The translations under genes and the position numbers were made by a program. Below, in pieces: positions 4,661 through 35,127 of a stretch of 64,000 bases of DNA. Within the stretch, counting starts at the first letter, position 1. Each line of letters opens with the position of its first letter. Under the pieces are notes generated by a model. That model ran no database searches. It saw nothing but the letters and a program-made list of their open reading frames with translations, and was not told the origin of the DNA. Origin of the DNA: Podospora anserina (lineage: Eukaryota); the NCBI GenBank assembly GCA_017654855.1, contig CM030336.1:2170001-2234000 (forward strand), in the 5' to 3' direction.

Positions 4661-4753
4661 TAGTAAAGGATAAAAGAGGAGTTAAAAATTTACCGTATTA
4701 ATAATAAAAAGGAAATTAAGCTATAGGGATTTCGGCTTACAAAAGGAGTATTA

Positions 4754-4867
4754 TATTACGGTTTAAGAGAAGTAGAAACGTTAGGACTAGTAAACCTAAG
4801 CAGGCGAATAAGCAAGGCCTATAGGGTAGAAAATAATACGGGCTAGGGGATTTAGGAAATAGATCCA
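4754..4867 (+). mobile_element. Truncated 3' LTR (U3 fragment) of E1
   Basis: Follows the polypurine tract, starts tattacgg (RIP of tgtcacgg), and is cut by the LTR at 4868. Confidence 0.7.
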
Positions 4868-5238
4868 TGTGACGAACCCCTGTACAGAACCTCTGAAAGG
4901 GATACGGGTTGAAGGTAACTTCTGACAATTGGTTCGGTGCAGCTAAACAGTGCACAATAAGATGTCTCAATATAAACACAAGATACAGTGAATACAATTG
5001 TGAATTGCATACTGCGGAACTGTCTATCTACACCAGCCAGTTCCTCCGTATATATAGACCTGTTTATCACCATTATCACCAGTGATAATGTCGATTATCA
5101 CTCGTCGTTCACCGAAGGCTGGTGATAATCGTGATTATCACCCTTGGCGCTAGTGATAATCTCACTTCCCCACTTTTCCGTTCCTAGTGGTTGGACGGGT
5201 CGCGCCCCGCGCTCCCCACTTATGTCAGGTCCGTGACA
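4868..5238 (-). mobile_element. Chromovirus-family LTR, GATA-repeat U3 type
   Basis: TGTGAC...GTGACA termini, shared R/U5 module and TATATATA box. U3 matches 19124-19262. Flanks atcca/acaaa are not a TSD. Confidence 0.92.
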
Positions 5239-8200
5239 ACAAATTACTGTTCATCTCTGTATTATTACCTTGAATCCTTAAAGAAAAAATTCTTTAATTA
5301 TAAAATAGATTTTATAAACTCAAATTGTTTTGAGATTTTACCTTTATCATATCATAATATATAAAGTAATTACTTATAAATAAAAAGTCTTTTTCTTTTA
5401 TTACTTAGGTTAATGTACGTATTTATTCGTTATTTTCGTTATGTTTCTTTATGTATTTATTATACTTACTAATGGGTCTTTAAACAGTTAACTACTAGGT
5501 ATTTTTCTTAATCGTTATTAACAAATATAAAGTAAATTTATTATAATGATTGTATTAATTAATCAATATACAGTTGGTGATTATGATCAAACTTTCCGGC
5601 TAAACTTTATAAAAATAATTGATAAATTATTTAGGAAAGCTCTATACTAACCTTTATGTTTTATCGCTTTTTTTATACAACAATTATTATTTTCTATATA
5701 TTAACTATTACATTTTATTAGGTGCCCGTTAGCTTACTATCATTTATAAATATGTCTATTCCTCAGGTAAGATCATTGTTTATTCAATATATTAAAGTAT
5801 CTTTGTTTTTATTTTTGGCAATATTTATAAAGATATATAATTATTTGGTTTTTTTTATGTTATTACTACTTTTGTAATTATATCGGTTCATTTCTTATTA
5901 CATATAATATTTATTTTTTACTATGTATAATATTTAGTAACAATGTATTTTTTTAAAACCCTATATTAATACAGTTTAGATTGTATTAAATATTATAGTA
6001 CTTGGAACCTACTTCTGCTTATATATTACTTTATTTATAGTCTATACTTATACTATAATTTTATTTACTAACCTTTCAAACTACTCTTTTATTATTTCAA
6101 TGGTTTTTTAAAGGTTTAACTTAATATTATGATACATTTATAAGTTTCGGTATTATAAAAAATATATTTAATTACTTATTTATTCACTTATAGTTGAACT
6201 AATGATAAGCTAGTAACGATATATAATTCTCTATTTGTAAGGGTAAACAGCTCTTTTAGATTGGTAGATTCTCCCGTATCAGTTTCTTTATATAAATTAT
6301 AAAGTCGAGTTTACTTTTCTTAAATATATTCTTGTGACGAACCCCTATCCAGAACTTTTCAAAGGGATACTGGTTGAAGGCACTTCTGAATAATCCTGGT
6401 TCGGTACAGCTAAACATTGTACAACAAATGGCTTTTCACAATCACAATAGCTAAGATACCACGATTGTGACTTGTATTGCATACTGCGGAACTGTCTATT
6501 TACACCAGCCAGTTCCTCCGTATACATAGACCAGTGGACCGTGGACCGTTGACTTACAGACGGTCCTCGGTCCACTCCTGATTGACCGATACTGGACCGT
6601 GGACCGTGAGCTCCGCCGCGGTCCCCGGTCTCCATCTTATTGGTCCGTTTGCCCACCTGGACCGTGAGCTCCGCTCGATCGCGCGGTCCAGTCCTGATTG
6701 GTCCCTTGTGGCCCCACTGTCTTCCAGAACCGTGACATAAAGATATCATTATAATTTTAAGGATAAAAAGGGTATAAGAATTTTTGGAAGTTTATTAGGG
6801 GGAAAAAATTTATAGGGAAAATTCAAAATTGTTGTAGTACTGGCCAGACTTGACTTTATCTTATCACTTGCTCTGCACCTAACCTGACTCACTTGCTTGG
6901 CTGGTCTGTGCTTACCTACTATACGCTTGTACGTTTAAAGCCCTACTTAGCTGGCTATAAAGCTTTCCGTTTTTTCCCTTCTTTAACTAGAATCCTATCA
7001 AAATAAGTGGTCATATTATATCTTTATATCCTCAAAACCTTACTTATAAGATTATTCTAGCTTAACCGTTATGGTTTTTAAAAACTGTTTCATTTTCTTA
7101 ATTAACAAACCGAACCGAACTAAATTAAAATTCGGGTACTCATTAATGTTATCAAATATAATTATCCAAAAAGTCGCTATTATAAACGGAAAAGTTACTA
7201 TACTAATGAAAGTATATATTTAGAGAATAATTTGGTAATAATTCACATGACGAACACCGAACCCAACTAAATTAACTATTTGTATGTATATACTTTTATG
7301 ATGAGGTTAAGGCTCTTAATTCATATATTTATTAATATATCCAATTTATTTCAGAAATCTTCTTAAGAACCTCTTTATAAATAATAAAATTATTATTAAA
7401 CTCTATTATTACTTAGAATTTATGTGGATATACAGATTATTAGATAAAGAATTATTTTTTATATTATACGCCGAAATAAAAACGAAGATATTTCTTATAT
7501 CATATTAGCTAAGGTTAATAACGTGATATTAATTATATATATCAAGCTAAATGTTATTGAGATAATTTGGAGCCAGTACTTTACCCTTTTATGAGAGAAA
7601 CTAAATAAACATGTTAATAGTAAAATTACTGTATTCATTAAGTTTTTATTATTAATAGTAAAGTTATTAATCTTTTAACATTAAACATAAAATATTAAAT
7701 TTAAAGATCTTCTGAATAACAAGATATTCAATTAATTCATTATGGAAGATTTAAAGGTTATATTTATTAAAATTTCGATTTCCATCTATACCCAGAAATC
7801 CAATATTTATAGCTTTCACAAGTATAGAAATCAAGTAAAGATATCATTATTATCTTTAAATATTCAATAGTTTAAATTATTCTATTAATTTAATAGCCTA
7901 GATTATTTTATTAAGTTAATATCTAAAGGATCCTAAAACTCTTTATTACCCCGTTAACTCCGAAAGTATTTTTTCTTCACTTTAAATAACAAAAATAATA
8001 TCCCCACGAAAACTCTTTGTTTAAATAGAAATAAATAAAGGCTACTTATAACAAATTAGTACCTGTCAAAACAGTGAATTAAATTAATTATACTGTTGAA
8101 TTAAGTTCAGTTATCAGTATTGAATCCATTTACTATAATACGCTTATTTTCTTTTCAAATATTTAATATAACTTTTTCCTTATTACGAAGAGCTTCAAAA

Positions 8201-9900
8201 ATGATACCTTACCAATATTATATATTCAAATGGTACATTATGATGCTCCCTTTAAGGGATAGTTTAGGTTAATAAAGATTACACCTAAGGTTAACGGTAT
8301 TTATGATTCGATCAACGATACTATTTATACTTTTTTGAAGAGTTACTTAGGAGGTGATACCGCGATTACTTTGGAATTATACTTACGTCATAACTACTTT
8401 AAAGAGTTAATTACTTTGGATTAATTATTAAACTATTTATAAAATAAGACTATAATTCTAATTATATTCAAAAAGGTTAAAATAAGTTTAATACTCCAAC
8501 CATAAAACCGACTAGCAATTTTTATATATTTTTGAATATTTCATATAGTTAACTACTTAATATCATCTTTTCAGAGCTTAATACAATTATAAATTACAGT
8601 ATTATCTCACTATTACCTTCATAACTACTACTATCACTACTCACTTTTATACCTATGGTATTTTTGAGAAATAAATCTATATTAATATCGATTAATATAA
8701 GTCAATACAAAATTTTTAATGGTAATTTAAATTATAATACCAGTAGCTTTAGTAGTTTTAGATGATATTGTAGCTATAGTTATTATAAAAGTAAAGGAGG
8801 TTATAGTAGTAGCGGCTAAAATAATACTAACATGGGATTAACTATAAGCAATAGGTAACTAGGCCCCTAACTTACTACTAAAGAGATAGCTAAACTAATA
8901 GCTAACGGTACCCACTTTTTACACCGATCAATTAAACTACTGGAGTACATTATGACTCGGATATTGACTAATATAGGAGCTAAAAAATTCAGCTTTATAA
9001 CTTTAAAGTTTATAGAACAACTAGTTACAAATTTCAATATTCCTTAAAATAGTAATTTTAGTTCGGTAGTAATAAAAAGGTACTTTAGTAGGTAAAAGGT
9101 AGATGTTACTATTATAGTGGATTTGTTAATGGAAAGTAAGATAAATAAACAATGAGTATTGTTAACGGTAAATATACTAATGAATATTATATTAACTATG
9201 GTTTGGAAAATAGTCGGTATCGTTTTACTTGAAATTATGGACTATCTTATATAAAGAAAATATTAAGGTAGATTAAGAGTGGACTGTAGAATTTAAAGAA
9301 GAGGCCAGAGATAATAAAACAGTAGTAAATAAAAAGCAAAGCCCCAATAAAATGATAATAGAGAGGTTAACGAGCTCTGATATACTCCTAAAGTCACTAG
9401 TATATTTAATAAATTTGAGCCTACTCTAATATCAATTTCATAATATCTTTATTGAGTTTATCATATATTTAATATAAAGTTGAATAAATATATTGATTTA
9501 TGACTTTAAAAAATAATAGCAAATTAAAGATTATTTATTATATAAGGATTATAACTTAATTAGTATCCTAGTTATTAGGGGTAGCAGTTAAAGTAATACA
9601 TTTTAATAGTTTAGTTAATAGGTATAAAAAGTGTATAACAATGGAAAAAAACGGTATTATAATAATAGTAGTAAAATGATATAAAGAGGAAAAAGGCCCG
9701 CGATAGTATTAAATTACCTACCGGTAAGTAGGTGTTAGGTGAGTTATTAGTAAGGTACTAAAAAATTTATTATAGGAGGCGTTTAGAAGGTTAAATTATA
9801 TTACTATATTACCGTAATAAGTTTATAGGCTTAACAATTACAGACTAAAACGTGATTCTTAGGTAATATACCCTTATGCCTTTTTACTAACGTCGAGTAT
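5239..9900. repeat. Unclassified RIP-degraded repeat DNA (interrupted by the LTR at 6333-6737)
   Basis: AT-rich and stop-riddled, with no motif I can assign confidently. A less mutated stretch starting tgttgtag at ~6830 may be an LTR of another family. Confidence 0.5.
6333..6737 (-). mobile_element. Chromovirus-family LTR, GGACCG-repeat U3 type
   Basis: TGTGAC...GTGACA termini and a variant R/U5 module. U3 nearly identical to the reverse complement of 22446-22650. Flanks attct/taaag are not a TSD. Confidence 0.92.
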
Positions 9901-12400
9901 TAGCGTTATAAAACAACCATTTTATTAGTCTTTCTTTGATTTTTTTAATAATTGAAAACTTTCAAATATAGTTTTATGATATAGAAAGGTATATGGATTT
10001 TAATCACTTATAATATAAAACAATGTCTTTAGTATTATAGTGTTTTCATAATTACTATCTTACTATTTTGAAATCTTTAATACGTTCTTGCTTTTTACTT
10101 TAAATAAATTATGGGTTTTGATTATACTTAATAATTTTTCTAACTTACTATAAGTCTTGGAAGCTAGTTAAATATGAATCATGATAACAACACTATATTT
10201 ATTTATCTGAATATTCTTTAGTTTTAATATTTCATGATTTACTTCTGGTAAGGTCTTATCCGTCAAAAGGAAAGAAATAATATATCTGATATACAGTTAA
10301 GCTTACCTTTGATATATTATATTTTTAGAGGTATTACATTAATAAATTATTACTGATATAATTTTAAGTTAAATTTAATGGTATTGATTATTTTCAAGAG
10401 AAACTAATGTCTAACACTTTTTAGTCTTCAATAGTTACTTAACATTATAATATCTTGGGTACCTAATTATTAGTATCTTCTAAGCTTCTTATATATCTAT
10501 TTTAAACTTATTATTTTTCATGTAGTAGGCTATGAATCTTACTCACTATTTATTATTTTGTAGTTAACATATATGATTATTCAGCTAAATTAATAGATAT
10601 TCTTTGATTATTTTATTTTTTACTTTTTATATAAAATACTATAACCTTAATACTTTATTTACAAGTGTTAACTTGAATAAAGACTAGTCTGGTATAGTCC
10701 TAATACTAGAAATATAGGTTTATTACAAACTTTTAAAGTTTAATAAATACCTCATTATAGAAGGTTTAAATAGTAATACAGCCTTTATATTTTACTTTGG
10801 TACTTTTGCATTTCATAAATTCAATATTATGGCGGTTTCTTTTCAATAAAGTGGATTTTTATGTTTTGTAAGTTAGTTTCTTCTTTAAGCTATAGTATAA
10901 AAACTTGTAAAATACTACTATATTAACATGATAATGTAGAGTATTTAGTTTTATTAGTATTCTGACCTTAATCATGACTTCATCTATTTATTTATAGCTA
11001 CTATTCCCAGGCCATAAGCTTCAAACTCTAATATCTAAATTAATATAGATTTTGAAAAAACACTTGCTCCCGCTAATAATAATGTTAGGCTTTATAAAAA
11101 GTTAAAAATTATCTTATATACTCTATATACACTTTATTTATTATATCACGTATAATAATATTATCAATATAAAGATTGAACAAGTTTTATATAGTATAAA
11201 ACATTAGCTTATGCATTATTAAATATATATAAGTACATTCTTGAAGTCTATTGACATTATTTTATAGAACTTCAAGCTTTTTAGGTTAATTTGAATTATA
11301 TAATTTAATAAAAGTTCTATATTAATAACTGGTAGAGTAAGGTATTATGAGTCAATACTATTTATTCATTAAATACATGTCTATAACTATACGTACTTTC
11401 TTTTTGGATAATCCGTTAAATAATAAATGTAGGGTGCTTATATCTTTACGTTCGTTGTATTAGATAATGGTAATCTTTTACGATATATATAGTCTCTCTT
11501 CCAATATATTTGATTTGTAGGTTTTCTTGAATTACTCTTTATTTATTTTTCATCTTCTTCAGCTTTAACTTTTACATTGAATATGAATTTCGCGCTATTC
11601 TTTTTAAATTAACTGGCTTCTTACTATATTCTTTTGAATGTATTATCTTAATATGTATATTATCCTCTTTTATTTATTTAATATCCTAATATTTTTTAAT
11701 CAAATTTGCAAAGTATTTAGTATTTTTCGATAGTAAGTATTTCAAATATGGAAACTATTACTGTATTAATTTCATTTAAACCTTTAACTTTCTCGGAATT
11801 AACTATCTTTTACCGGTTTATTTATCACGGATTTTTTTAAATAAAACCGTTTTACTCTTTACATTCAGTATAATATATTACTTGTATAGTAAAACGGTGT
11901 CCTTAAATAAATGCGTTAATTCATAGGTTATAAAAGCAAAGTTTTATTATTGACTTTATTAATTAGTTAAATAACGATATTTTACATTAATTATATAATA
12001 TATATGGTATTTTACCTATGTAGCATATACTATACAGTACGAAAGATATAAAAGAAAATAAAAGCAATGCTTTATACATTTTAGCGCTATTGCCGTATAA
12101 TAAGCTTTCGTAAAAGTATCCGGTACTCTAGTAAAAACCGGTTAGAGACGTATATAAAAAGTTTAATTACGTTATAATAACAGGCCTACGTAGTATATAT
12201 AACTATAGCGTTATATAGTAACGGTATCGGATACGTCATGGAAAACTAACCTTGGGTAGTAACATTATTACATATAAAGAAGTTAAACGAGGTAAGCTAA
12301 AGTACAAAGTCTAGCTTTTTCTTTAGCTATATAAATCCTTTAGTATGATATTTAATACTTTTTATCCTTTTTACTTTTAATAAATATAATAACGGTTTGA
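9900..12400 (-). mobile_element. Degraded Ty3/gypsy pol relic of a different family (RT-RNase H)
   Basis: Minus strand reads ctt tat att gat aat att att (LYIDNII, YIDD relic) at ~11155-11175, preceded by an MxxxFKN motif. ata gcc tac tac (IAYY, RNase H) at ~10522-10533. Boundaries approximate. Confidence 0.7.
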
Positions 12401-12445
12401 TCTTGTACTTATCAATAAAGTTTATATTCATAAGCACCTAGCTTA

Positions 12446-12695
12446 CTAGCTAGGTCTCTATATATAAAGGGCTTTTCTATAAAGCAAGGTTTTTTAAGAT
12501 TATAAATATATTGATATATTAATTCTTTAAATAACTTTTATATTTTTAAGTAAAGTTAAAAAAAATTATGATGCTGGAATATTACGAGGTTAGTGAAAAA
12601 ATCTATATTTAAATATATATATAAATATTTATAATCCGTAACTTCATTACTTTAACCCTCATGAAAAAGCCCTCTACCTATAGAGACCTAGTTAG
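12446..12695. repeat. Imperfect ~35-bp inverted repeat pair enclosing ~180 bp (possible MITE relic)
   Basis: ctagctaggtctctatatataaagggcttttctat (12446-12480) vs reverse complement of 12661-12695: 29/35 identical. Confidence 0.55.
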
Positions 12696-13738
12696 CTAGG
12701 TCTCTATTAGTAAAGAGGTTAATAGTTATTTTATTATACGTAGTATAATATTAGACCATGAAGAGGGTGAGTCTTTATAATTTTTATTATTTATAAAAAC
12801 TGTAGGATTTAATAGATTAGATATTGTTTAACTTTTTTTATAGTATTAGTTTTATTAATAAAAACGTTATTAAAGTATATTTTTTAAAAGTAAGAAAAGC
12901 GGGGTCATTCTTTATTCAAGGAGTAGAGATGAAATTTAAGTATTAATTAAACTTTAAAAAGAGCTAGGTAATTATAGCAACATATTTTAATAGGACTTTA
13001 ATTTCTTTAGTTAATTTTTAATTTTGATTAAATTAAAGATATGAAAGCCTCTCAAGGTTTTGACCTATTGAATATAATTTCTACTGTTTCCTCTATTTAA
13101 AAAATATATTCTGAATAAATTCCTTAAAATATAGCGTAGGTATTTCATTACAAATAACGTTAACAATCTTAAGTTTTTTTATATATTACAAGAAAAGAAA
13201 CTATGAATTTTAATTATTTATACTAATAAGGAATGTCTTTAAAAATAACAGAGTTTTTAACTTTATTAGTATCAATAAAGGTAGAGGTAGTAATTAATTT
13301 ATAAAGAGTAATATAGTACTTGGTAAGGGATTTAATTTATTCAGTTTAATTAGTGTTAAGTTTATGAAAAGCAATATAGTATTTAAGGTTATGAACATAT
13401 TGAGATATTTTATTCTAGAATATTATATAAATACTTCAGCAGCGAAGATTTTACTTTTATTATTTATTATATTTAATTTAATAGTAATTTCTTTTTTAGG
13501 TAAGTTTATCAAGGAACACCTTGAAGATATAAGCGGCCTTTTTACTAACGGTAATATTAATTCTTTTTAGTTTTTAGAAAGTATTAATAAAATAAATTAA
13601 TAAAAACCGGATTATTTATAATCTTTTTCAAAGGGGATATTATTATTTTAGGAGGTAAATTAATATTAAAACTGTTTATTTTTGTTTAATTTATTTAGGT
13701 AATCAATGTAGAGAAACTATTATAGGTTAATTATAACC

Positions 13739-14143
13739 TGTAACGAATCCCTATCCAGAACCTCTAAAAGAGATACTAGTCGAAGGCACTTCTGAATAAT
13801 TCTGGTTCGGTATAGCTAAATAATATATAATAAGGGCTTGTCTTAATTATAATAATTAAAATACTAACGATTATAACTGATATTATATACTACGGAACTA
13901 TTTATTTATATTAGCTGGTTTCTCCGTATATATAGACCTATTGGTTTTCTAGACTATTAACTCCCAATAATAATCCTTTGTTAAATTATTAACTTTTAGT
14001 AATGATCCCGCTTTAAATTACTACCTTTTAGCAATAATTCTATAAGTAAAGTTATTTCCCGTTTTATTTAGCTCTATTAACGATTACCTATATATATCGT
14101 ACCCCGTGCACGGTTTGTCTTACTAAATAGTTTAATTATAATA
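13739..14143 (-). mobile_element. RIP-mutated 3' LTR of a minus-strand chromovirus (probably E2)
   Basis: Starts tgtaacgaatccct and carries the shared R/U5 module. Ends like 1-91 and is followed by the reverse-complement PPT (taatactcctctttttaaa). Confidence 0.85.
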
Positions 14144-14596
14144 TAATACTCCTCTTTTTAAATTGAAGTCTCGGTAACTTAGTTTTTGAATAACTGCTCA
14201 TTTTCTATCTGTTTCTACTTATAAACAGTGTATCTGAGCCCTGTAAAATACAGGGCCTTAAAGGCAATATAATGGCTTGGATCAGCAGTGCTTAGGGACC
14301 ACGGTTGCCGGAACGGAATTCAGCCCCCTTAAAGCAATCCGAAGTCCCGGAAAGCCGAACGCTAAGGCCAGTGCCCTGCAGCGGTTAAACGGTAGCGTAA
14401 CGTGGCCTGTAACGTAGCCTGTAACTTTATTTTGGTTAGCGTATTTAGCGGGCGTTCGGGCCCGGGAACGGAGTTACTTTCGGGGAGCGAGTAGAAGATT
14501 AACGGCCTATAAAACTTCTGCCTTACACCCTATTTACTGTGATATTTCTTAGTCTGTAAGGTTTAATTAATATATTAGTTTACTATACTTATTAGT

Positions 14597-15033
14597 TATG
14601 ACGAACCCCTATATAGAACCTCTGAAAGGGATACGGGTTAAAGGTAACTTCTAATAATTAGTTCGGTATAGCTAATAGTGCATAATAAAATATTTTAATG
14701 TAAATATAAGATACCGTAAATATAATTGTGAATTGTATATTACGGAACTGTCTATTTATATTAGCTAGTTCCTTTATATATATAGACTTCTTTTCCTAAC
14801 CGTAATTCCTTTAATTAGTGTTCCGAGTATATTAATTACTTACGCTTAGCCTAATTAATATCTTAATTATATTAATTACCCCGGCCTAGCCTACTTAATC
14901 TAATTAGTATTCTAATCGCACTAATTACCGTCCCTCCCTATAATTAGCTTTCTTAAGTATTTTCCTAATTAGCCTTTACTCCTTTAGTTCTATAATTAAT
15001 CGTTATTCTCGTCTATATACTAAGGTTATAATA
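14597..15033 (-). repeat. 3' LTR of E3 (CTGATCAGTG-type U3)
   Basis: Aligns end to end with 23433-23870, differing almost only by C->T/G->A. Confidence 0.93.
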
Positions 15034-15143
15034 CGATACTCCCTCTCTTAAACTAACGTCCCGGTAGCCCCATTCCTTTTATTTTTTTTAATAATAACTT
15101 CCTTCCTTAATAAATTTTCCCTTCCCATTACTATCTTTTCGTA

Positions 15144-16181
15144 ATATTTAACCGCGTTAAGAAACCTACGCCGAAAGGCCCTTTGTTACGAATATAATGT
15201 GGATACCCGCAAAGAATAACTAATAGGAAAGAGGAGGCACGGCAGCCAATTAAGAGAAGGGAGGATGGACTAGTAAGAGGTGGATCATCCGGGACATGAA
15301 GAAATCATAAGCGATTCCCGGAAATCACTTATGATCCTTAAGAATCGGTCATGATCCGGGGAGAAACAGAATGATTTAGGCTTAGCATTAGGTCTATATA
15401 TACGGAGGAACTAGATAGCTTGTAGATGGTTCCGCAGTATACAATTTACAGTTGTATTTACGGCATTTTGTGTTTATATCGAGATATCTTATTGTGCACT
15501 GTTTAGCTGCACCGAACTAATTGTCAGAAGTACCTTCAATTAGTATCCCTTTTAGAGGTTCTGTACAGGGGTTTGTCACACCCTTCTAATACCCTTCGCC
15601 GCTAAAATCTTATTACCGCTACTTTTATTTTTAATAACGAAATCCTTCCCTATTCGTCCTGGGAAGCTCTTAATATTTTTGGTTATCGCGCTCTCGAGCG
15701 CTTTTCTAGATATAACTACTACATTAATTCTAGTCGTTCCGACTGCGACGTCCTAGGTCTTACTCCTGCTTTAATAGTCTCTCTTCGTCGCTAGAAAGAG
15801 AAACTAGACGCCGAAGAGCAAAAGGCCTATACGACTATACTATAAATTACCTCGAAGCTTTCGCGGGTAGAGACCTAGCGTCGTACTTTAGTCGCTAAGT
15901 TCCGTTATATCGCGGCCCGCGAGGAGCGGTTAATCGAGGACTTAGAACGGGAGGAAGTATAAATTGCTTTTATTATTAATCTTCCTTTAACCTTTTCTCT
16001 TAATTAGGCCTCTATAATATTAAACTAGCTCGGCTTAGACCTTCCGGATAACCTATTCTTTAACCTTCCGCTTAGTTCTAACTTTTTTATAAAGTTAATT
16101 GTTAATCCTTTCCGGAGTTCCCCGCTTCCGGCTACCCCGGACTTTTCCGGCGGTAATCCTCCTATTTTCTAGGGTAATTAA
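15144..16181 (+). pseudogene. Antisense accessory ORF of E3 (Zn2Cys6-like cluster plus coiled coil, ~210 aa), interrupted by the solo LTR 15184-15580
   Basis: After removing the solo LTR and one TSD, a single frame runs from ATA (RIP of ATG): xFNRVKKPTPKGPSNTLRR*NL...EILPYSSWEALNIFGYRALERFSRYNYYINSSRSDCDVLG...LRR*KEKLDAEEQKAY...AAREERLIEDLEREEV...PDFSGGNPPIF*GN-stop. All internal stops are TAA/TAG, consistent with RIP of CAA/CAG. Confidence 0.8.
15184..15580 (+). mobile_element. Solo LTR of the chromovirus family, TCATGATCCGG-type U3
   Basis: TGTTAC...GTCACA termini, perfect TSD ccctt/ccctt, shared R/U5 module. Confidence 0.93.
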
Positions 16182-16223
16182 CGCTTATAGTATTACTTAC
16201 GCCCGGATTTCTTTATATTTATT

Positions 16224-16293
16224 AACTTTATAGTATAGTACGTAGTATATTAATTATTACGTCGAAGGCGTAAATTCGATTTTTATCGAGGTT
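16224..16293 (+). ncRNA. tRNA-like unit embedded antisense in E3 (heavily RIP-mutated)
   Basis: 70 nt, ungapped alignment with 24329-24398, runs into a T7 tract. Confidence 0.65.
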
Positions 16294-16990
16294 TTTTTAT
16301 ATTTAAGTTATAAATACTTTTTTATAATTTAAATATAGTTCTTTTTACTTACTTAAGTTTAAATCGGTTTAAGTATTATCGGTAAAAATTTTTTAACTTA
16401 TTTAAATAATTAAAATATATTTATAATTCTTATAAGTTATTTATAACCGGGTATTTTAATTAATTAATTAAATATTTTATTTAACCTTTATTAAACCGTA
16501 AATTTAATAATTTTTTTATATTATACTTTTCTTCTTCGTTCTCCATTACTTCCTATATATTTACCTTACTTACCGGTAGTACGGGTTCCAAAAGTAAAAT
16601 ATAAAAAGTATATAACTTTAAACGTATCGTATTAGGTAATTCTAATTCGAATATCGTTTTTAAAATCTTTTTTTTTAATTTAAATAGGCTTACTTTCCTA
16701 TAGTCTAGCTTCTTACTAAGTCTTTTAATATGTAAATTACGTATAAAAAGGAATACTATATCCCTCCCCTTAAAGTAAAGTCCCTCGAGCCTTTTAATAT
16801 TATAATATTTCTATATTTTTTTCCTTATAAACTTTAGTTTTTATTTAAGCTTATTGTAGAATATATATATTTTATTTACTTTAACCCCGGCCTTAAGTAC
16901 CTTTACGTTTAATCCTTACCGTAGGTTTACTTTATATTTAAAGTTTACGAAGAACGGCGTAACTTTAGTCGTTTCTATTAGTAATATATT

Positions 16991-23432: not shown

Positions 23433-23870
23433 TATAACGAACCCCTATATAGAACTTTTAAAAGGGATACGGGTTAAAAGTAATTTTTAATAATTAGTTC
23501 GGTATAGTTAAATAGTATATAATAAGATATTTTAATGTAAATATAAAATACCGTAAATATAATTGTGAATTGTATACTACGGAACTATCTATCTATATTA
23601 GCTAGTTCCTCCGTATATATAGATTTCTTTTTTTAGCCGTGATTCCTCTGATTAGTGTCCCGAGTATACTAATTACTTACGCTTAGCCTAATTAGTGTCC
23701 TGATTACACTGATTACCCCGGCCTAGCCTGCTTAGTCTGATCAGTGCTCTGATCGCACTGATGACCGTCCTTTCCTATGATTGGCTCTCCTAGGTGTTTT
23801 CCCGATTAGCCCCTGCTCCCTTAGTTCTATAACTAATCGTTATTCTCGTCTATATACTAAGGTTGTGACA
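23433..23870 (-). repeat. 5' LTR of E3
   Basis: Pairs with 14597-15033; followed on the minus strand by the PBS and gag. Confidence 0.93.
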
Positions 23871-24051
23871 TCAGTGCCTCATAAGCCTATGTTACAGTGA
23901 TTATCTTTTATATATTACAGGGCGCCGCCTCTGCAATCCACCTTCCCTCAGTGCTCTGGCAACTGTCAAATGCTGCAGTCAAAGTCTTCTTCGCTCTCAG
24001 TGTACTGCGCCGATAGCTATTCGAGCCTATATTCTACAGGCCTTAATAGCA

Positions 24052-24288
24052 CCTAAAGGAGTTATAAAAAACTAAGCGCGAAAAGTAATATATTCGTTCC
24101 GCTTTTTTTCGGGACTATTTTGTAGTGGAGCCCTCCGTTACTATCCCTTCCGGTTTTCTTTTCTAGATTTTTCTTTAGGCTTTAACTAGCTTTCCAACCT
24201 TTCCTTATTTTTTAATATAGTTAGTACTTCCTTCTTAACCGGTTAGGGTACCGCCGGTAATACGCCTTTAATTTCTTACGGTAATTAA
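24052..24288 (+). pseudogene. C-terminal remnant of the antisense accessory ORF of E2
   Basis: Ends ggt acc gcc ggt aat acg cct tta att tct tac ggt aat taa (GTAGNTPLISYGN-stop), homologous to the E1/E3 C-termini. Aligns with the reverse complement of 4031-4270. Confidence 0.7.
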
Positions 24289-24328
24289 AGTATAATATTA
24301 ACTATATACTAGTCCCTAGGTATTTATT

Positions 24329-24398
24329 AACTTTATAATATAGTATATAGCACGCTGGTTATTATATCGGAGGCGCAGGTTCGATTCCCGTCGAGGTT
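24329..24398 (+). ncRNA. tRNA-like unit embedded antisense in E2 (best-preserved 3' half)
   Basis: aacttta-ta-atat-agtatata-gcac-g-ctggt-tattat-atcgg-aggc-gcagg-ttcgatt-cccgt-cgaggtt-tt. Forms a cloverleaf after de-RIP; B-box GGTTCGATTCCC. Confidence 0.75.
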
Positions 24399-27300
24399 TT
24401 ATATTTAATTTAGCAAATATAGTTTATAAATTTAAATATTTTAATTTTTTACTTTAATCGGTTTAAGGATTACCGGTAGAATTTTTAAATTTATTTGGGT
24501 AATAGACATTTACTATTAATTTCTCTAAGTAATCTATAGCTGGGTAATTTAAATAACGAATTAAATATTCCAATCATCTACTTTTAAAGTATAAATCTAA
24601 TATTTCTTCTATATTATACTTTTCCCTTTCGTTTTCCGCTTTTTTTCAAATATTAGCCCTACTTACAGGTGATACGGGTTTCAAACGTAAGATATAAAAA
24701 GTATATAAATATAAATATAACATATTAAATACTTTTAATTTAAATAACGTCTCTAATATTTTTCCTTTCATTTTAAACGGATTTATATTTCTATAGTCTA
24801 GCATCTTACTAAGTCTTTTAATACGTAAATTACGTATAGAAAAGAATGTTATATCCCTTTTTTTAAAGCGAGGTTCTTCGAGTTTTTTAATATTATAGTA
24901 TTTTTATATCCTTCCCCTTATAAAATCTTTTAAAAAATTTATTGTAAAGTATATATAATTTACTTACTTTAACCCTAGCCCTAAGTACCTTCATATTGGG
25001 TCCTTCCCGTAGATTTACCTTATATCCGAAATCTAAAAAGAACGACATAATACTTATTGTTTTCATTGATAATATATTGTATATTAATTGTATTATAAAT
25101 AATCAATTTAATTATTTTACCTGATATTAAGATAGTTCTGTAAGTACTATTCTACAATTTAGTGTTGTCACCAATTAAGGCTCTTTATCAGGTAAGAAGT
25201 ACGTTTATTTAATAAATTAAGTCTATTATAATTAAGCTTCATAGTAATTTTATTATTAATACGAACTCTAAAAACCTATAAAACTTGTATTTATAACTTT
25301 TATTCTTTTGTATATATAGTGTAATTGAATAGCTTCCTTAATATCGCTCTTAATCTTTAATTCTTTAAAGTAGTATTTAAATTTTCTATAGTCTTTGTAA
25401 TATTCATATACGCTCCGAACTTCGATGCGTAAATTTTTATTATTAATACGGTTTTCTTATTTAGCTTTACGCATATTCAACTTCTATACTATATTCTTTC
25501 TTAACAGTTTTTTTAAATACTTTACGGCTTTAATTTCTCTTATTAGTATTACTTTGTAATATCGTTATTTAATTTCCTTGAGAATATATATTAAAAATAC
25601 TTTGTTTACGATATATTACGTAATACCTTATTTAAAATTAAAGTAAGTACGAAGAAGTACTTTCTAACGTCTTTTTAAATAATAATAATAACTCTCTAAA
25701 TATATCATTATATTAATCGGCTCCCTGGCTAAATAGTTTTACTTTAGCGTTTTTTGAACTATGTCTATAATTAAGTTAAAATTATATTTTAAAAAAAGCT
25801 TTAATTAATGCAACTACTATACGTTAAGGACCTTCATAGAAATAAAATATCGTAAATCCTTATAATTCGTATAGACCTGTATTTCGTAATTAATATTATT
25901 AAAGTATCGCTTTTATTCTTTGAACGTTTCGATGATAACGGGTAATCTTTTATTAGATTAAGTAATTCTAACGTATTTCTTTTATCTTTTTTAAAAACAA
26001 TTTACCGGATCCTTTAAAATAACCTTTTAGCACCTAAAAACCTCCAGTTTTCCTCTTGCTCCTACCAAAACCCTACGTTTTTCTTAATTAAAGAATTAAA
26101 CAGTTACGCGATTTTTATATACTTCCGGATAAATATCTGATAGAAATTTATAAATTTGAGGAATTCTTTAAAATATATTTATAACCACGGTTTAAATTAA
26201 TTCTTAACTATCGTATTCTTCCTAGGTTGTCTCCGAATCTTAACGATATTAAATATCCTAGATATATTATTTTTATAGTCAAAACTCGTTTTTTTCTTCA
26301 TCAATTAAAAGTCCAGCTTTATATAGTAGGTTTAATTTTTCATATATATATTATTTATGTTCTTTGAAAATATATAAGTAAATAAAAATATCTTCAACAT
26401 AATATATTACTATTTTATCGAGGTACTTCCGGATTATATCATTAACAACAAATTAAAACGTTACGGGCGTGTTAATTAATCCGAATAATATTACGAAATA
26501 TTTAAAATAATTTTAGGGTATATAAATCATTATTTTTCTATTTATTTTATCTTTAATTAATATATGAGTGTACTTGATAGGTATTTAAGCATATAGACTA
26601 TTACGCTTTACTTAGTTAATTCCGTAATTTAGATATTGACGGTAGCGGATAATTATCTTCTACCGTTTTATTATTCAATTAATAATACTTAATAGATATA
26701 ATTATAAATTACAATTTTTTGCTCGGTACGAAAAATACGAGGTACTTTGCTAGCGATATGAACTCTTTGATATATCCTCCCTTTAAATTTTTGTCTAAGT
26801 ATTTCCGTAACTCCTTATTTTATTTATTATTAATGTATAGACCTTAAATAACTATGGATTAGTTCCTTTTTTTTTCTTTAATTTTATAGTCTCACGGTCC
26901 TCGCTTTAAAAATTCATTTAAATACTTAACTGTAAAGGCTAAATATCCTCGATGTTCTACCGGTACTACCTTTGTCTTAGCTTTCTTTAGGTTATTATAA
27001 TAAACGTAATTATTAATCTCCGATATTTCTACTAACGTTATTAGCCTTATTTTTCGATTTTACCGTTTATATCGATAAAGTATAATATTGCATTCTAATC
27101 TCCTTACGGTAGTACCGTAAAAAGTACTATTCTTATACTCTACTTTATATATATTTTTAGCTTTCTATCGTTAATTAAATATTTTTAAGGTTTTCTAATC
27201 GGAAGTAATTACTATTGCTTTAATCGATATTGAGATTATAATCTTTATGTTATAGTTAATTTAGAAATATAGGTTTGGAGTGTGCTATCTTTATCATATT

Positions 27301-29762
27301 GAATATAATTAAAGCTATTTTTCCTTCGACTATAATATCTAGGGATAATACTTTTTATAGACTTTTTACGTCGGATATAATCTTTATATAACGATTCATT
27401 CTTTCTTTTATACTAGTCTAGTTCAATATATAAACTCTAGCGAAATTAAATTCGTTTTTATATCTTCGTTTATTAATCTTACCGTTTAAATATCCCTCTA
27501 ATGTATTATAACCTAAAAGTATATATCTTTCTTACTTTTTCCTTTCATAATAACGATTTCGTTAATAAATATTAAATTGTTATCATAGACTTTTACTTTA
27601 CGTTAATATTCCCGATATTACTTTTCGTAATTTAATAAAAACTACTAACTTCCATAAAAGGTTATAAATTATGTTTGAAACGGTAATATTTTTTAAAAGT
27701 ATTTTTCTATTCCGCGTTATTTCATAATATAAACTTTTTTAATTACTACCGTTAAGCCTTTTTTTTCTATTCCTGGTATTTTGTCGAGCTTATCTCCGAT
27801 TATTTCTCCGTTATTTAACTGTTGTATTAAACCCAGTTATTAATTCGTAATATCGCTTAGCCTTTTCCGGTAAGTAAAGCATATATTCGGAGCTTAAGTA
27901 ATATATTAATATTACTTTTCTTTATTAAATTATACTATCTTCTTTATTGTTTGGGATTTTTTACTAGATGTAATTTTTTATATACTTAGGTATAAACTGT
28001 ATAATTTAAACGTTACCTGTTAATTTTACCGGGTCTTAGACTCTCTAAACATTTTTTGGTTTAATTCCTTATAGATTTGTTCCTATTTAACTATCGTCCT
28101 TTAACTAACCTAAACCTACTTTCTTTACTTTCTTTACGTACCGGTTAATAATTATATAGTAATCTACTTTAATAGTATTTCATATATCCGTATATGATAT
28201 ACTGAAACTAAAATACTTTTCGATATACCGGATATTCAAAATAAAACTATATTACGTTTCTCTTATAAAATATATACCATATAGGTAAATGTATTTATTT
28301 TATTCTCTTGGAGAGTTTAATATTAGCAATCTTTTTACCCTTTTAATATTTTTCTTTACTTTTATATACGAGTTTCTTTAACTGGGGCGTTCGTTGTATA
28401 ATTACGGCTTGATATTAGTAAATTTATTTTTTAGTACCGTTTATTGAATAGGTCTTTCCTATTATATAAAATCGTTAGTTTTATAACCTTTAGAGTAATT
28501 TCCGTAATAATTTGTATGAATTAATCCTATAACGCCTATATTAAAATCTCTTTCTTTATACTCCGCCTTTAGCCTTTTTATTACTTTCAATAGCCCCTAA
28601 AACTTTACTTCTTCTTATTTGGTATACTAATAAGGAGTTTCCTCGAAATTTACTAGCTTATTTTTTAATACTTAATAACTATGATTTTTATAACCTTCGA
28701 TCCTTTTAATATAAAATTATTATAACGACCTCTTCTTTTTATCCGAATCGTTTAAATACCCTATAATTATTTTTCAAAGATTTCACTTTACTATAATTAA
28801 AATACTTAAAATTATCCGTACTTTAACTTTGGCTTTATAGCTTTTATTACTATGTAGCGTCGACCTTTGAAGCTCCCGTATATATAATACCGGAATAGTT
28901 AGTATTAAAGTATTATAATTTATATTTATCGTTAAAGCGGTTATGCCTATAGTAACCCCCGGTTATTACCTTTTTTTCCCCGTAGAACATTCAAATTACC
29001 GATCGTCGATTCGTATAGCTACAGTAATATATTTATCCATATTATTAAGCCTCGAGTTTTTATCTAATTTATCCTTTGCTTTTTCTTTAAAACCGTTATA
29101 AAAGACTTCTATTAACCCCTTATAGTTAATAATATTACGTAAATCATTGATTTTAAAAAAAGCTGCGTAATTTATTATTAAATACGTTTAACGTAAGTTT
29201 ACGAATCTCCTTTATATATGCCTTATTTCAACGTACTTGGTAAATACTTCCTTAAGCTTAGTTTTGTAAGTTTAGTAACTGTTAAAATATTATACGGTAA
29301 AATCCTTCTAACTCTCGGTTTTTTTTTATAATTATTAAAAATAGGTTCGAAGTACATAAAAGTTTGATTTTTAAGTTTAATCGCCGCAAAACTTACTTTT
29401 GATTTTTCGGTAATAACCTAATTTAAATACTAGCGAAAAGTTTTAAATTAAGTTAAAACCCCTTTAGGCTTTACTTTTGTCTCTTTATAGTATTCCGCTA
29501 CCGGAAATTCAATCCTTGATTTAAATACGGTCGAGATAGCGATAATCTAATTCCTAGTTTAGTAAGTTTTACCTTTAAATTTTTTAATATGTTTAATAAG
29601 CCATTAAAGCGAAATGATTTCAAGATTTATAGCTATAATATAAGGTCTCTCGTTATTTAAACCAAGTAGGACGCTTCTTATTTAAACGTTTCTAGGTTAG
29701 GCTATAGTAGTAAAAAAAAGCTTTCAAAATATTTATAATACAGCTAAAATAAATATAAAGCG

Positions 29763-29875
29763 TATAATAAGCCCCTACTTACAACCTCTAAAAGAAATAC
29801 TAATCGAAGATACTTTTAAATGATCCTACTTTGGTATAGCTAAGTAATATAAATAATAAGTAGTCTTAGTAATAA
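29763..29875 (-). repeat. U5 remnant of the E2 5' LTR
   Basis: tataataagcccct...aacctctaaaagaaatactaatcgaagatacttttaaatgatcct aligns with the shared U5; the adjacent PBS/leader matches 23400-23432. Confidence 0.75.
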
Positions 29876-32800
29876 TATCTTTTAATATTTTATGCCCTTG
29901 ATATAATATACTGTATTTTATTAATCAAAATTATAATTTCAGAGACAAAACCTATCAAACTTTATAAATTAATCCTCCGTATTGAACGGAAACCTTTATT
30001 ATTAATAATACCTTTATATATTTATTTAATATCAATTCCTACTCAACAATCAGCAATTCGAACGTATACCTTTAAAATCCTGAATATTTATTATAATTTA
30101 ATAAATAAGTATAGTTTAAAAAACAGAATGTTAGATTAAAAAAAGGACATGAACCAAAAAAAAGATAAGATATTATTAAACCTACTTTGATTTCAAAGTA
30201 ATACAAAATATCTTTTATGCATTAAGAGTAAGATTAATTAATACAATAATCATTAAGTATGTACTAATTCCTGGTTAAATTCAAAACCTTTCAAGTTAGA
30301 ATTAGTCCCGAGGAGAGTTTAATATCCCCTATTAAAAGTCTGTAATCTTTAAAACTAGACGAGGTATTTATGACCGGTCCTGAAAATAAGTAAACTCTAT
30401 TAAATTAAAGGATTATAAATCGGTATACTATTTCAAAATTAAAAAATCTTAAGTTCTATTTTTATAAACTAAAAAAGTGAAAAATAAAATTATTTTAATA
30501 ATTCTAATATTAAAGTAGGTCCTTACAAGGCTTAACAATAAACCCCAGGTAAAAATTATCTATTATAAATCTAAGTGAATAATAAACTAAATACCTTTAG
30601 ATTTCTACTCAATATGATGTTTCTTATTTACTATACGTTACTTTTAAACTTGTTATTACTACGTAAAAGCTGATTAAGAAAATATACCTTTAAAATATAA
30701 AGTCAGGCCAATAGTTATAAGTTTCTAAAATAACAAGAACATATATTCTATAAAAGCTTTTATTTTAACTTTAATTTTATTTTTGAAATATATAGTATCA
30801 ATTATAATACCTTTGTTAAAATACACAAGCACAATAGTTTTATAGGTGCCTTTTTTACAATTGAAAAAAAATTTTCTAGTTAAGTATAACCGAGGGCTAT
30901 TATGAATTCTCTCATTAAGCTTACGAAATTATTAAAAATAAAAAGTAAAGATTTAAAATCTAGAGAAAATGAAATATGTCGTTTAGAAAGCCTTTATAAA
31001 ATTTAAAATAAGGTTGTAAGTTTTAAACACGTAAATATACTAAATCACAAAAAAAAAGTTTTAGAATACTAATTTCGACTTTAATATATTTTTATAATGT
31101 TAAAGGAACCCTTTATAGTAATTGACGTAAGTAATTATTTATTAATGAGCCCTAGTAAAGCATATATTGATAGGTGTAAAGGGAAGTTAAAAAAGGTTTA
31201 TTCAAAATAGAGGGCCTACTATTTTTTAACGTTACAATAATGCGGGACAAGTATTACACAGCCTTATAAGCAAGTTAAGCCAACCATATATATAAAAAGC
31301 CAAAACCTTTATGTTGCAAAATAATGCGGAAATATTAGTTTTATTATAATTTAGAAAATAGTTTAATTTAAGAACCCTCAACGCAAATGATACTACAGGG
31401 AGTTTGTATTAAAACTATATTAAAAATGATTAATTATATAATACCGTTCAATGCTTTATATTAAACTTACCATATTTTTTACTATATATAACTTTACTAA
31501 ATATATATACATTCATACTAAAATAAACCTAAAGGTTATTTAAAATTTAGTAAAATATATTAAAAAAATTAATAAAGTAAATATTTATTTTAACGTTAGT
31601 CTTATTGGTAAGGATATTTATAACGATAGGTTTAGGATACCTAAAACATTTACCGATTTGGATTGTCCTAAGGACCTTAAAAACTTTAAAATTATTTAAA
31701 AGTTTTTCATTAGAAAGAATTAATAGGCCTGCAAATTAAAGATTAAAATAGGCCTTTACCATAATATTTTCTATTATAAAAGCTATAATAAACCTGTTTA
31801 TAAGAACTTTTCAAGAGGTTTTATAGGTTAAAAAGGTCTTAAATATAAAGAACTTAACTTAAGATTTATAATACTTACTTACATATATAGTAGTGATATA
31901 GGCTCTGTATTTACTACCTATAGCTTAACGCTTTATAACTGTATTAAATATACCTTAAGAAAATATATAATCAAATAATAAATATTAAACACTTATTTAT
32001 TAAACAAATACCTACTAATAACCTTATTAGAGTTTTAGTAGGTTAAAATCTTAAAGAGTTTATAAAATAATAGGCCTTATAAAAAATCCTAAAGAAACGA
32101 TTAAAAGGAATTTTAAATTGCTTTCAAATCCTTATCTCTAAATATTACATATATTTGTAGTTTAAAGTAACTACTTAATACTACATTATAAACTTTAATA
32201 CTTTTTATTTTTCTTATAATAATCAATTTATGAACTAAGTTTTACTTTTCTTTAAAAAGTAAATTTAAAGCTAAACTATTTTACATAATATGTTAATAAA
32301 CAACATTAAAAATAGGTCCCTACAAGGCCTGCCTTATAGCAGGTTACTACTATAGTACTACAGAGTTTTAATTACGAAAGAAGTATCAAAAATATTCAAA
32401 ATATTTAATAAAACAGTTGCCTGGCATTTACTTAGTACTCTATAAAGTTTCTACCTAATAATACTAACTATATTAAATCTTTATTTTTAATACTATAATT
32501 AATTTAAATAACCTAAATTTTATATTTAAACTAATAAACTTTATAAATACTATATAGCATCTATAACCAAGTAAATCTATAACATCCGAACTTATCGGAG
32601 CCCAGTAAAATAATTTATACTATTTTATATAGCCGTAAGTATCTTTAATAAAACATAATTAAATCGTCGATTTTTAAACCGAACCTTAGCTTAGTAACCC
32701 GCTATAATATATAAGGCCGGATAAAACCCTTGGGGAATATAGAATTATAGTCGAGAACGAACCTTATAATAAAGTATTAAGTTAAAATATAAAAGGTTAT

Positions 32801-34685
32801 TATAAAATTTATAAAAGTTTACCCATAATACTTTTTTTCTATATCACTCCAAGCGTTATAACTTTAGTATACCCAGTAGTAAACTATAAGTATTGTGCAA
32901 ACTATTTCCGCTACACCGTAGGTACTATAAGTATTTACCGTTATAGGGCCCTTAGGTCTGTATATGTAATATAATATTTAATAAATATATTTATTAATAA
33001 GTTAATGATATGAACGTTGAATTAATATAATTAAACAGATGTCGGGTATTAACTTTGTGAGTTTGTTTTTTTAGGGGGGAGGGGATTTCTTAAACTTTAT
33101 AAAAAATATAAGTAATCTGATTTATAAAATTTATTATTAGAATTATTATTAATATAGCGCTTAATTTAATAATAATATAAAAATTCAAAATCTTTCGTAG
33201 TTTAATACTTATATATTGATATTTATCTATATTTTTAAGCTATACGTTCCTATATAAAGAACATATTACTATATAAATCTTCGAGATTTAATGTTAAAAA
33301 AAGGTTTAATAGTAATATAAAATTTTTATTAGGGAAAATAGGGTTTATTGTATAATAAAGAAATTATAAATATAATTATTAATATAATTATAAAAATAAT
33401 TATAATACTAAGATTACTATATATATAGGTCTAATTAGGGTGTGAGATTTAGTTATTACTAAGCTAGTCTTTAAAGCAGTGGTAGAACAGTAAATAGATT
33501 ATATATACTATAAAATATAAACTAAGAATAAACCTAGAAAAAGTATTACTATACTATAGTTTAAACTACTGCATTGATTATAGTATATTTAATATTGTAC
33601 ATTTTCTCAAATATGAATGTCTCGCAATTTTATAAAAAAAAGATTGGTGATATAAATAATACTAGTATGTTTAACTATAGTCACTTAAATATTAATACCA
33701 ATATTTAGAAAAATAATAATAAAAATTAAATATAATAGTCTCTTAAATACTATTACTATAATTCTAATAAAGTCCACTAACTTATTAAATAGTACTATAA
33801 AAGGTTTTTCTTTTATAACACAATCAATAGTATATTGAATATAATAGTAAATGTATTAATATTTAAAAGCCTGATAATGATAATTACTATAGAGAACCCA
33901 TTTATTATCATTTAGATTTAAAAAGTGGGATACTTCAAAACTGTAACAGAAATAGATATATAGTGTTTTTTAGAAGAAGAAAAGTATTAATGAATATAAT
34001 TATAAAAACTTTATTCATAAAATAATTCAATATAAATTTAATAGTAAGGGTAGCTATAATACTATTTAGGGATAAAATTCATGTTATATCATAAACTCTC
34101 ATTATAGTGTAGAAAGTTTAAAAAAACTAAGGAAACTACTAAACCGCCTATTAACTCTATTAATAAAGCTTATATCAAAGCCATTAATTTAATAACGCTA
34201 GTTAATATCAACTTAAGAAAGGTACTGAATAGGGCATATATTACTAATATTAAAATACATTTAGTATAGTTACTACTATAATTAGTTAAGTACAATAACT
34301 ATTAAAACGGGCATGAATTAAAAAGAAAATCTGTTAAAATAAGTAAATATATATTAAACTTATGCATAATTAATATATATAATTATTAGATATTTTTAAC
34401 TAAATATAACTATATTATTAAGTTTTAAAATAAACTCTAATTTATTTATTTATTATAATATGTAAAGCTTTATAACGCTTTTACAGGGAATATAATAATA
34501 ATTAAGTATAATTTTACTATAAGGTATTACATTAAAATTATAAAAAGCTATTATCAGAAATATAGAGGGTTATTTACTCTTATACGTAGTGTATAATAGT
34601 GCCTTTTTTGTGCTATATACTTTCTAATACTTTTTTTAAAAAATTAATAATAGTTTTAAGTTTTATTTATAATTGTATTCTATAC
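29876..34685. repeat. Unclassified RIP-degraded repeat DNA
   Basis: AT-rich with no ORFs; no diagnostic motif identified with confidence. Confidence 0.55.
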
Positions 34686-35127
34686 TGTGACGAACCCCTG
34701 TACAGAACCTCTGAAAGGGATACGGGTTGAAGGTAACTTCTGACAATTGGTTCGGTGCAGCTAGACAGTGCACAACAAGATGTCTCAATGTAAACACAAG
34801 ATACCGTGAATACAACTGTGGATTGCATACTGCGGAACTGTCTATCTACACCAGCCAGTTCCTCCGTATATATAGATCCTGGGGCCCTGAGGTGCTCGCC
34901 CTGCTACGGCCCCGATTACCCATAACACATTGCATCCTGCAAAGTGCTCGTCGTGCTATGCCTCTGATCACTCGTAGCATCTTGCATCCTGCAGAGTGCT
35001 CGTGTGTCTTGGCGCCATAGCGCTTTCGTCCAGCCCTGATTGGCTGTCTCCTGACTTCTCTAATGATTGGCTAGGGACGTCCTGCGCCCCACATGTGGCG
35101 CGGCCTGCTGTTGGGTTAACTGTGACA
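34686..35127 (-). mobile_element. Solo LTR of the chromovirus family, least mutated copy, at the AT/GC boundary
   Basis: TGTGAC...GTGACA termini, perfect TSD tatac/tatac, shared R/U5 module. U3 has a TTGCATCCTGCA(A/G)AGTGCTCGT direct repeat and two GATTGG boxes. Confidence 0.95.

Follow-up and report, generated by a model that had tools for sequence, protein, structure and literature searches.

Crapaud is a Ty3/gypsy retrotransposon of Podospora whose "unique LTRs" (long terminal repeats) were pointed out by Vogan et al. (preprint, 2020). In the portion of the later study by Westerberg et al. (2024, Mob DNA 15:1; PMC10787394) on which we draw here and below, 1305 crapaud LTRs from seven genomes were found by their conserved 3′ half and divided into 14 U3-defined subfamilies (Crapaud_LTR1-14), with divergence placed "preceding the TATA-box". 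The same portion reports that 7 of 150 full crapaud copies have disparate LTRs, describes recombinant 'rogue' copies, and shows an internal-region tree that clusters by species, not by LTR subfamily, and is incongruent with the LTR tree. The hypothesis from which those authors started, that the subfamilies evade repeat-induced point mutation (RIP), was rejected by them; they propose promoter or enhancer selection, or chance, name template switching between RNAs packaged together as a route of recombination, and describe the binding sites and the expression of the subfamilies as unknown. Here we analyse a 64,000-nucleotide stretch of Podospora anserina DNA (GCA_017654855.1, contig CM030336.1, positions 2,170,001 to 2,234,000; hereafter the window, whose own coordinates are used throughout). 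The window contains a RIP-mutated nest of one fungal retrotransposon family, and we read its LTRs as crapaud copies in which a conserved core is joined to varying U3 regions (probability about 0.9). The variable U3 beside a constant core is a rediscovery, as the architecture and the 14 subfamilies of crapaud are already in print.

The LTR set comprised nine copies, designated A-I in order along the window, and fragments at 1-91, 92-214, 4754-4867 and ~29765-29900. U3, R, U5 and 'TATA box' are used as positional labels only. A block of ~190 bp from TCTATATATA to GTCACA is common to the nine copies and to three of the cut-off pieces, as had been claimed for these LTRs in the original prediction. 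For the 23-mer GTCTATATATACGGAGGAACTGG, 8 sites were found when ≤3 mismatches were allowed, where 100 shuffles gave an expectation of 0; for the end motif GGGGTTCGTCACA, 9 sites were found with ≤2 mismatches, where 0.49 were expected. All of them fall where the original prediction had placed them. To map the upstream edge of the block, the nine copies were anchored without gaps on the T of TCTATATATA (position 0) and identity was calculated for 33 between-type pairs, both in the ACGT alphabet and in a purine/pyrimidine alphabet. From -60 to -11, identity was 0.16-0.28 (ACGT) and 0.41-0.56 (purine/pyrimidine); from -10 to -1 it was 0.36-0.47 and 0.61-0.74; from 0 to +4 it was 1.00 in both alphabets; and from +5 to +54 it was 0.65-0.96 and 0.85-1.00. 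Similarity is indeed lost a few bases upstream of the core: identity is at chance level from -11 outward and climbs to 1.00 over ~3-10 bases. Purines predominate in the three bases directly before the anchor.

The most conserved 55 bases, at 34822-34876 on the minus strand and in the equivalent block of every LTR, form an imperfect palindrome, GGAACTG...CAGTTCC, flanked by TATAC...GTATG. This block folds better than its shuffles in all four copies tested, although modestly (z -1.6 to -4.7). A claim that it forms a stem-loop was dropped, the effect being modest and covariation unreadable under RIP.

Upstream of the core, the U3 regions fall into seven types: type 1 (the 1-91 fragment and C), type 2 (the fragment at 4754), type 3 (A and F), type 4 (B and G), type 5 (D and H), type 6 (E) and type 7 (I). 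They were compared by local alignment after removal of the first 10 bases, in both alphabets and against shuffles. RIP produces transitions only, and a purine/pyrimidine alphabet is therefore blind to it. Within-type pairs scored z = 13-95 in ACGT and 7-27 in purine/pyrimidine; the 1-91 fragment, for instance, aligned with the U3 of C at z 12.8 and 7.4, respectively, with none of 200 shuffles reaching either score. Between-type pairs were mostly not above shuffles in either alphabet. The exceptions were I against the 1-91 fragment (types 7 and 1; purine/pyrimidine z 4.0, 0/200 shuffles) and C against I (z 3.1, 1/200), along with a few other between-type pairs at z 2.6-3.8 that share CCAATCAGG-like words. 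Types 1 and 7 are colinear over their first ~70 U3 bases, so that their predicted sharing holds, and it extends beyond the outer end to which it was said to be limited. In types 3 and 4, 20 of the first 26 bases are identical by eye. Every type starts with TGTCAC or a RIPed version of it, giving an outer end of TGTCAC(G/A).

These comparisons bear directly on the possibility that the U3 types are homologous and merely made to look unrelated by RIP and poor alignment. The whole block is RIPed (GC 0.22-0.40), and in C, D and F the C-to-T and G-to-A changes relative to their type mates are plain to see. However, most between-type pairs remain at shuffle level in the purine/pyrimidine alphabet, in which within-type pairs reach z 7-27, and a significant between-type alignment once RIP is discounted was found only for the outer part of types 1 and 7. 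Moreover, the U3s of A, B, G and I have a GC content of 0.51-0.64 and so are hardly RIPed. We consider hidden homology exceedingly improbable. The seven predicted types therefore stand as non-aligning sequences even when the effect of RIP is removed, save for the short outer stretches of types 1/7 and 3/4.

Of 191 aligned columns, the cores of A and I disagree in 6 (96.4% BLAST identity), while their U3s are at chance (z 0.5). Point substitution cannot explain unrelated U3s beside near-identical cores, and replacement of the U3 body is required; the U3 turnover that had been proposed is thus wholesale and not a gradual divergence. LTRs are 331-442 bp long, the 331-bp copy (F) having a 40-bp deletion, and end in TGTCAC...GTCACA. 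Target-site duplications of 5 bp flank five of the seven testable insertions (E, F, G, I and the D/H pair), but not A or B. Types 3 and 4 had been said to recur at independent insertion sites. Each does occupy two sites, with target-site duplications at F (GTAGG) and G (TGTAG/TATAG) only. The finding of the same type at separate sites with separate target-site duplications supports the view that the U3 types are propagating lineages.

The 'constant' module is less uniform than its description as a single unit had implied. Its 55-bp block is near-invariant, with no transversions in eight of the nine copies and two in copy E. It is followed by a ~40-bp stretch and then the U5 part, which together occur in two forms that differ by insertions and deletions as well as transversions. 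The alpha form is present in A, D, E, F, H and I, and the beta form in B, C and the two R/U5 remnants (92-214 and ~29765-29900). The near-invariant block predicted for the module is there, and a single R/U5 is not. Copy G combines the two forms. It carries a type 4 U3 and a beta middle block, then the alpha form from ~+97 after the TATA box to its end; it matches B at four of the first five diagnostic columns, one being ambiguous, up to +86, and alpha at 17 of the 18 that follow. G is a recombinant with a crossover well downstream of the TATA box. A sharp breakpoint had been placed at the TATA box. A role for it as a site of recombination is not borne out by the window, as the sole visible recombinant crosses ~97 bases downstream. 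We prefer to take the abrupt boundary there as marking where functional constraint ends, not as a recombination hot spot.

Most of the U3 bodies have an internal architecture of their own. Direct self-matches beat all 200 shuffles in types 3, 4, 5 and 7, at offsets of 71/40, 58-59, 40 and 52 bases, respectively, and tandem units or motif arrays are present in four of the five full-length types. In type 3, copy A has seven GTGATAA words (GATA-like) in both orientations, a count reached by none of 300 shuffles, and the 40 bp missing from F relative to A correspond to two GATA-like units. In type 4, copy B has nine CGGTCC words (0/300 shuffles), ~58-bp units repeated about three times and CCAAT boxes, and copy G has a 59-bp unit repeated 2.5 times (TRF score 151). 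Type 5 (H) contains a 40-bp unit repeated 2.2 times (TRF score 95), ATCAG-like words and one CCAAT box, and type 7 (I) a 52-bp tandem duplication (0/200 shuffles) and two CCAAT boxes. CCAAT boxes in types 4, 5, 6 and 7 have a single orientation and lie 112-193 bases upstream of the TATA box; type 3 has none. In the light of general fungal biology, GATAA words are candidate sites for GATA factors, CGG-containing words candidate sites for zinc-cluster proteins and CCAAT a candidate site for the CCAAT complex.

The element to which these LTRs belong is classed, from the order of its predicted domains, as Ty3/gypsy. The evidence comes from the internal region of E3, the element bounded by LTRs D and H, which is broken by RIP (88 stops in 1181 codons) and was read through with X at the stops. 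RNase H was detected by Pfam above the cut-off (RT_RNaseH_2, 1.1e-19; RT_RNaseH, 3.5e-16; 70.8 bits), followed by the integrase domain SH3_Tf2-1 at 1.1e-4 and 22.7 bits, under the Pfam cut-off of 30; RNase H and then integrase SH3 is the order typical of Ty3/gypsy. By eye, the read-through translation also shows a reverse transcriptase (RT) motif and a tail resembling a chromodomain, neither of which gave a Pfam match. GAG was not identified in a Pfam scan of one frame per segment; in the same kind of scan 19455-22445 gave no match, an RT-like motif being visible there by eye. The domain set published for crapaud consists of GAG followed by RT, RNase H (RN), integrase (IN) and chromodomain, according to the Fig. 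2A legend of Westerberg et al. (PMC10787394).

Taken together, these data show an LTR built of four layers. The outermost is the short end TGTCAC(G/A), kept by all types and presumably recognised by the integrase, with the next 25-70 bases still common to some pairs of types. Then come a body of 100-200 bp that is particular to the type, adjoins the TATA box on its upstream side and in most types consists of its own tandem units or of arrays of one short word; a near-invariant 55-bp block from TCTATATATA with the palindrome inside; and the rest of the LTR (R/U5) in its two forms. Selection on transcription initiation, strand transfer and integration may preserve the core promoter, R and U5, while the upstream activating part would be free to change through tandem duplications, deletions and replacement by non-homologous sequence. 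U3 versions, once complete, could then be moved between lineages by template switching in R between co-packaged RNAs, or by gene conversion, and each successful version would found a subfamily. The transcription factors recruited probably differ from one U3 array to another. The anatomy, its sharp edge, the lack of hidden similarity, the independent insertions and the one mosaic copy are direct observations; that U3s act as enhancers that diversify expression is a suggestion drawn from the motif arrays.

In its most specific form, this proposal would make each U3 subfamily a purpose-built enhancer (GTGATAA in type 3, CGGTCC in type 4, ATCAG-like words in type 5) on a CCAAT/TATA chassis, so that the subfamilies would answer to different host regulators and hence to different states of nutrition or of the life cycle. 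A seed motif would have been amplified beside the TATA box and spread to other R/U5 and pol sequences by strand-transfer recombination, and the crossover at ~+97 would mark the start of R. We put this forward tentatively, as possible rather than probable. The alternative is a neutral history: if the upstream part were unconstrained, chance versions from an old burst could have hitch-hiked with active copies and have no regulatory effect. That subfamilies evolved by chance is a possibility raised by Westerberg et al. (PMC10787394), and such a history fits both the fact that most copies are dead and RIPed and the want of repeat architecture in type 6 and in the fragments of types 1 and 2. It is harder to reconcile with the significant homotypic arrays or tandem units that four of the five full-length types have immediately before the TATA box, and with the CCAAT boxes that recur, similarly oriented and 112-193 bp upstream, in types 4, 5, 6 and 7. 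Such arrays are unlike unconstrained sequence. They are suggestive, not proof, and they make the neutral history doubtful.

Capture of U3 bodies from host promoters or from the LTRs of other families, by non-homologous template switching, would turn the family into a collection of chimeras between families. Reverse transcriptases are known to switch templates, and capture would account for nil similarity between U3 types beside near-identical cores. Yet no U3 body matches anything else within the 64-kb window, and pairs of types share 25-70 outer bases as well as CCAAT boxes, which points instead to a common ancestral U3 whose proximal part was rebuilt. We think capture unlikely. Selection of U3 diversity for RIP escape, through shorter homology between copies, is very improbable. 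This was the starting hypothesis of Westerberg et al., whose data show an equal RIP load whether or not subfamilies co-occur with relatives (PMC10787394). In the window, ~190 bp of LTR sequence and an internal part longer than 6 kb are still common to copies with different U3 types, and heavy RIP marks every full copy of whichever type. The original prediction that shortened homology between subfamilies matters is accordingly not upheld. Its expectation that U3 and internal-region trees would disagree, by contrast, agrees with the trees in the published portion cited above (PMC10787394).

Several points weigh against the reading of these LTRs as crapaud copies with a constrained core and a rebuilt, regulatory U3. 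The identification as crapaud (reference sequence GenBank EU697463.1; LTR entries in the PodoTE library) comes from matching properties, and the names TATA box, R and U5 are assigned by position. The mosaic is a single copy (G), and it lies in a middle block that MAFFT aligned poorly and that was realigned by eye. Tandem build-up is not universal across the U3 types: type 6 (E) has no significant internal repeat (35/200 shuffles reach its score), and neither do the pieces of type 1 and type 2 (157/200 for type 2). As the motif arrays are partly identical with the tandem units, they are not independent evidence of factor binding. Finally, neither A nor B has a target-site duplication to vouch for its history.

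The copies are arranged as a nest of interrupted elements. At the start of the window, 1-91 (minus strand) is the outer 91 bases of a type 1 U3, with first letters TGTCACAGTTAAG and two CCAAT boxes, whose LTR leaves the window there. This insertion cuts the 5′ LTR of element E1 (plus strand, 92 to ~4867), of which the beta-form R/U5 part remains at 92-214. The E1 internal region (215-4753, plus strand) is RIP-degraded, is ~69-78% identical to the E3 and E4 internal regions by self-comparison, is shorter than either, and has a polypurine tract at its end (...AAAAGGAGTATTATAT). Its 3′ LTR, which is interrupted, begins at 4754 with a type 2 U3 fragment (4754-4867, plus strand; TATTACGG..., a RIPed TGTCACGG) that is broken off after 114 bases at 4867/4868. 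The E1 internal region measures ~4.5 kb against ~6.6 kb for E3 with its nested LTRs removed, ~1.9 kb near the 5′ end apparently being gone. A cluster of internal regions with a ~1.1 kb deletion is described in the published portion (PMC10787394).

LTR A (4868-5238, 371 bp, minus strand) has a type 3 U3 at 5060-5238 and an alpha-form core at 4868-5059. LTR B (6333-6737, 405 bp, minus strand) has a type 4 U3 at 6532-6737 and a beta-form core. We rejected A and B as the disparate LTRs of one element: they have no common target-site duplication, no conserved polypurine tract precedes A, and 5239-6332 gives only non-colinear matches of ~60% identity to crapaud internal regions. Since A and B are without target-site duplications and the intervening 1.1 kb is not recognisably crapaud, 4868-6737 suggests rearrangement or ectopic recombination after insertion. 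The following 7 kb between B and C (6738-13738; GC ~0.22-0.30, heavily RIPed) contained no Pfam family in six read-through frames and, by self-comparison, no match to the crapaud copies of the window.

The rest of the nest consists of an outer element, E4, that is split by E3. E4 (minus strand) extends from its 3′ LTR, C (13739-14143, 405 bp; type 1 U3, beta-form core, heavily RIPed at GC 0.29, with a polypurine tract ahead of it), to what is left of its 5′ LTR at approximately 29765-29900, the beta-form R/U5 part only. Its internal region (23871-29764, continuing at 14144-14596) is colinear with that of E3 and 71-75% identical to it. E3 (14597-23870, minus strand) has type 5 LTRs: D at its 3′ end (14597-15033, 437 bp) and the alpha-form H at its 5′ end (23433-23870, 438 bp), which are 86% identical over 432 bp and flanked by the target-site duplication ACTGA/ACTAA. 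The E3 internal region (15034-23432) holds three solo LTRs of the family, all on the plus strand: E (15184-15580, 397 bp; type 6 U3, alpha-form core, target-site duplication CCCTT), F (19124-19454; type 3 U3 with the deletion described above, alpha form) and G (22446-22846, 401 bp; type 4 U3, mosaic core). It also contains a GC-richer insertion of ~633 bp in its integrase region (16992-17624, plus strand), with ends TGTTA...TAACA, internal TATATATAG, short AAGGCCA-type tandem repeats and a 5-bp target-site duplication, ATATT; this has the appearance of a solo LTR from another retrotransposon family. The last copy, I (34686-35127, 442 bp, minus strand), is a solo LTR with a type 7 U3, an alpha-form core and the target-site duplication GTATA. 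It is the least RIPed of the copies (GC 0.52) and sits where the AT-rich block ends, with the first gene ~300 bp away.

That block occupies the first 35.4 kb of the window, with a GC content of 0.21-0.42 per 2 kb against ~0.47-0.55 in the remainder; the nest (1-35400) is at least 35 kb long and extends past the window start. By exact protein look-up, three open reading frames (ORFs) from the gene-rich half belong to 90%-identity clusters with PODANS_5_5420 (SQS1) and PODANS_5_5450, which places the host locus on chromosome 5 in the Podospora anserina complex of species. The same clusters hold orthologues of six other Podospora species, including P. comata, P. pseudoanserina, P. pseudocomata, P. 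pseudopauciseta and P. bellae-mahoneyi. In a 2025 preprint (10.64898/2025.12.02.690432), crapaud is enriched in centromeric regions of 44-90 kb in Podospora species, and for this reason the AT-rich block adjoining genes 5_5330-5_5450 could be a centromere edge, or it could be another repeat-rich island. Scans of metagenomes with two core patterns gave 0 matches each.

With the U3/core architecture, the 14 subfamilies, the clash of trees and the failure of RIP escape already in print, the discovery value of this locus is low. The window adds the repeat and motif make-up of the U3s, the two R/U5 forms with the mosaic G, and the shared outer U3 of types 1/7 and 3/4; in the portion of the published LTR study on which we draw, we found no description of tandem or motif-array U3 bodies, of two R/U5 forms or of a shared outer U3 (PMC10787394). 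Copy G gives a first estimate of where strand-transfer recombination joins modules. The window also illustrates the functional question left by those authors, namely whether U3 versions are different enhancers, and its GATA-like array, CGGTCC array and CCAAT boxes are concrete, mutable candidates in a tractable model fungus.

Compared with crapaud as published, the family in the window shows no difference in kind. The host group and the Ty3/gypsy class are the same. In the portion of the study cited here, crapaud LTRs are 339-443 bp long, start with TG (or RIPed TA) and have target-site duplications, against lengths of 331-442 bp in the window (PMC10787394). The same account describes a conserved 3′ LTR half, U3 variation that stops at the TATA box, several multi-copy types that spread independently, signs of recombination between types, and full copies that are heavily RIPed beside solo LTRs that are less so, as we find here. 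Grenouille, the other abundant gypsy family, forms one LTR cluster with no subfamily split (supplementary figure 9 legend, PMC10787394).

Modular U3s are also known outside Podospora. In the Tnt1 superfamily of Solanaceae (Ty1/copia; Tnt1A/B/C, Retrolyc1A/B and Retrosol), subfamilies likewise differ mainly in U3, whereas the coding and other LTR parts stay similar, a 'modular evolutionary pattern' in the words of Manetti et al. (2007, BMC Evol Biol 7:34; PMC1838419, of which a part is used here). The RNase H network of Tnt1 follows the host and U3 follows the subfamily, and U3 diversification was proposed as a means of propagation (PMC1838419). Tnt1 differs from the fungal gypsy element crapaud in being a plant copia element without RIP and with unrelated sequence. 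In Tnt1, experiments support a connection of U3 type with the condition of expression; no such support is known for crapaud. A further parallel is offered by the Ty1/Ty2 hybrid LTRs of Saccharomyces cerevisiae, as cited in the published portion (PMC10787394): these are recombinant LTRs that join promoter parts of two lineages, as in crapaud, but in yeast, from two parental types only, and with a known effect on expression.

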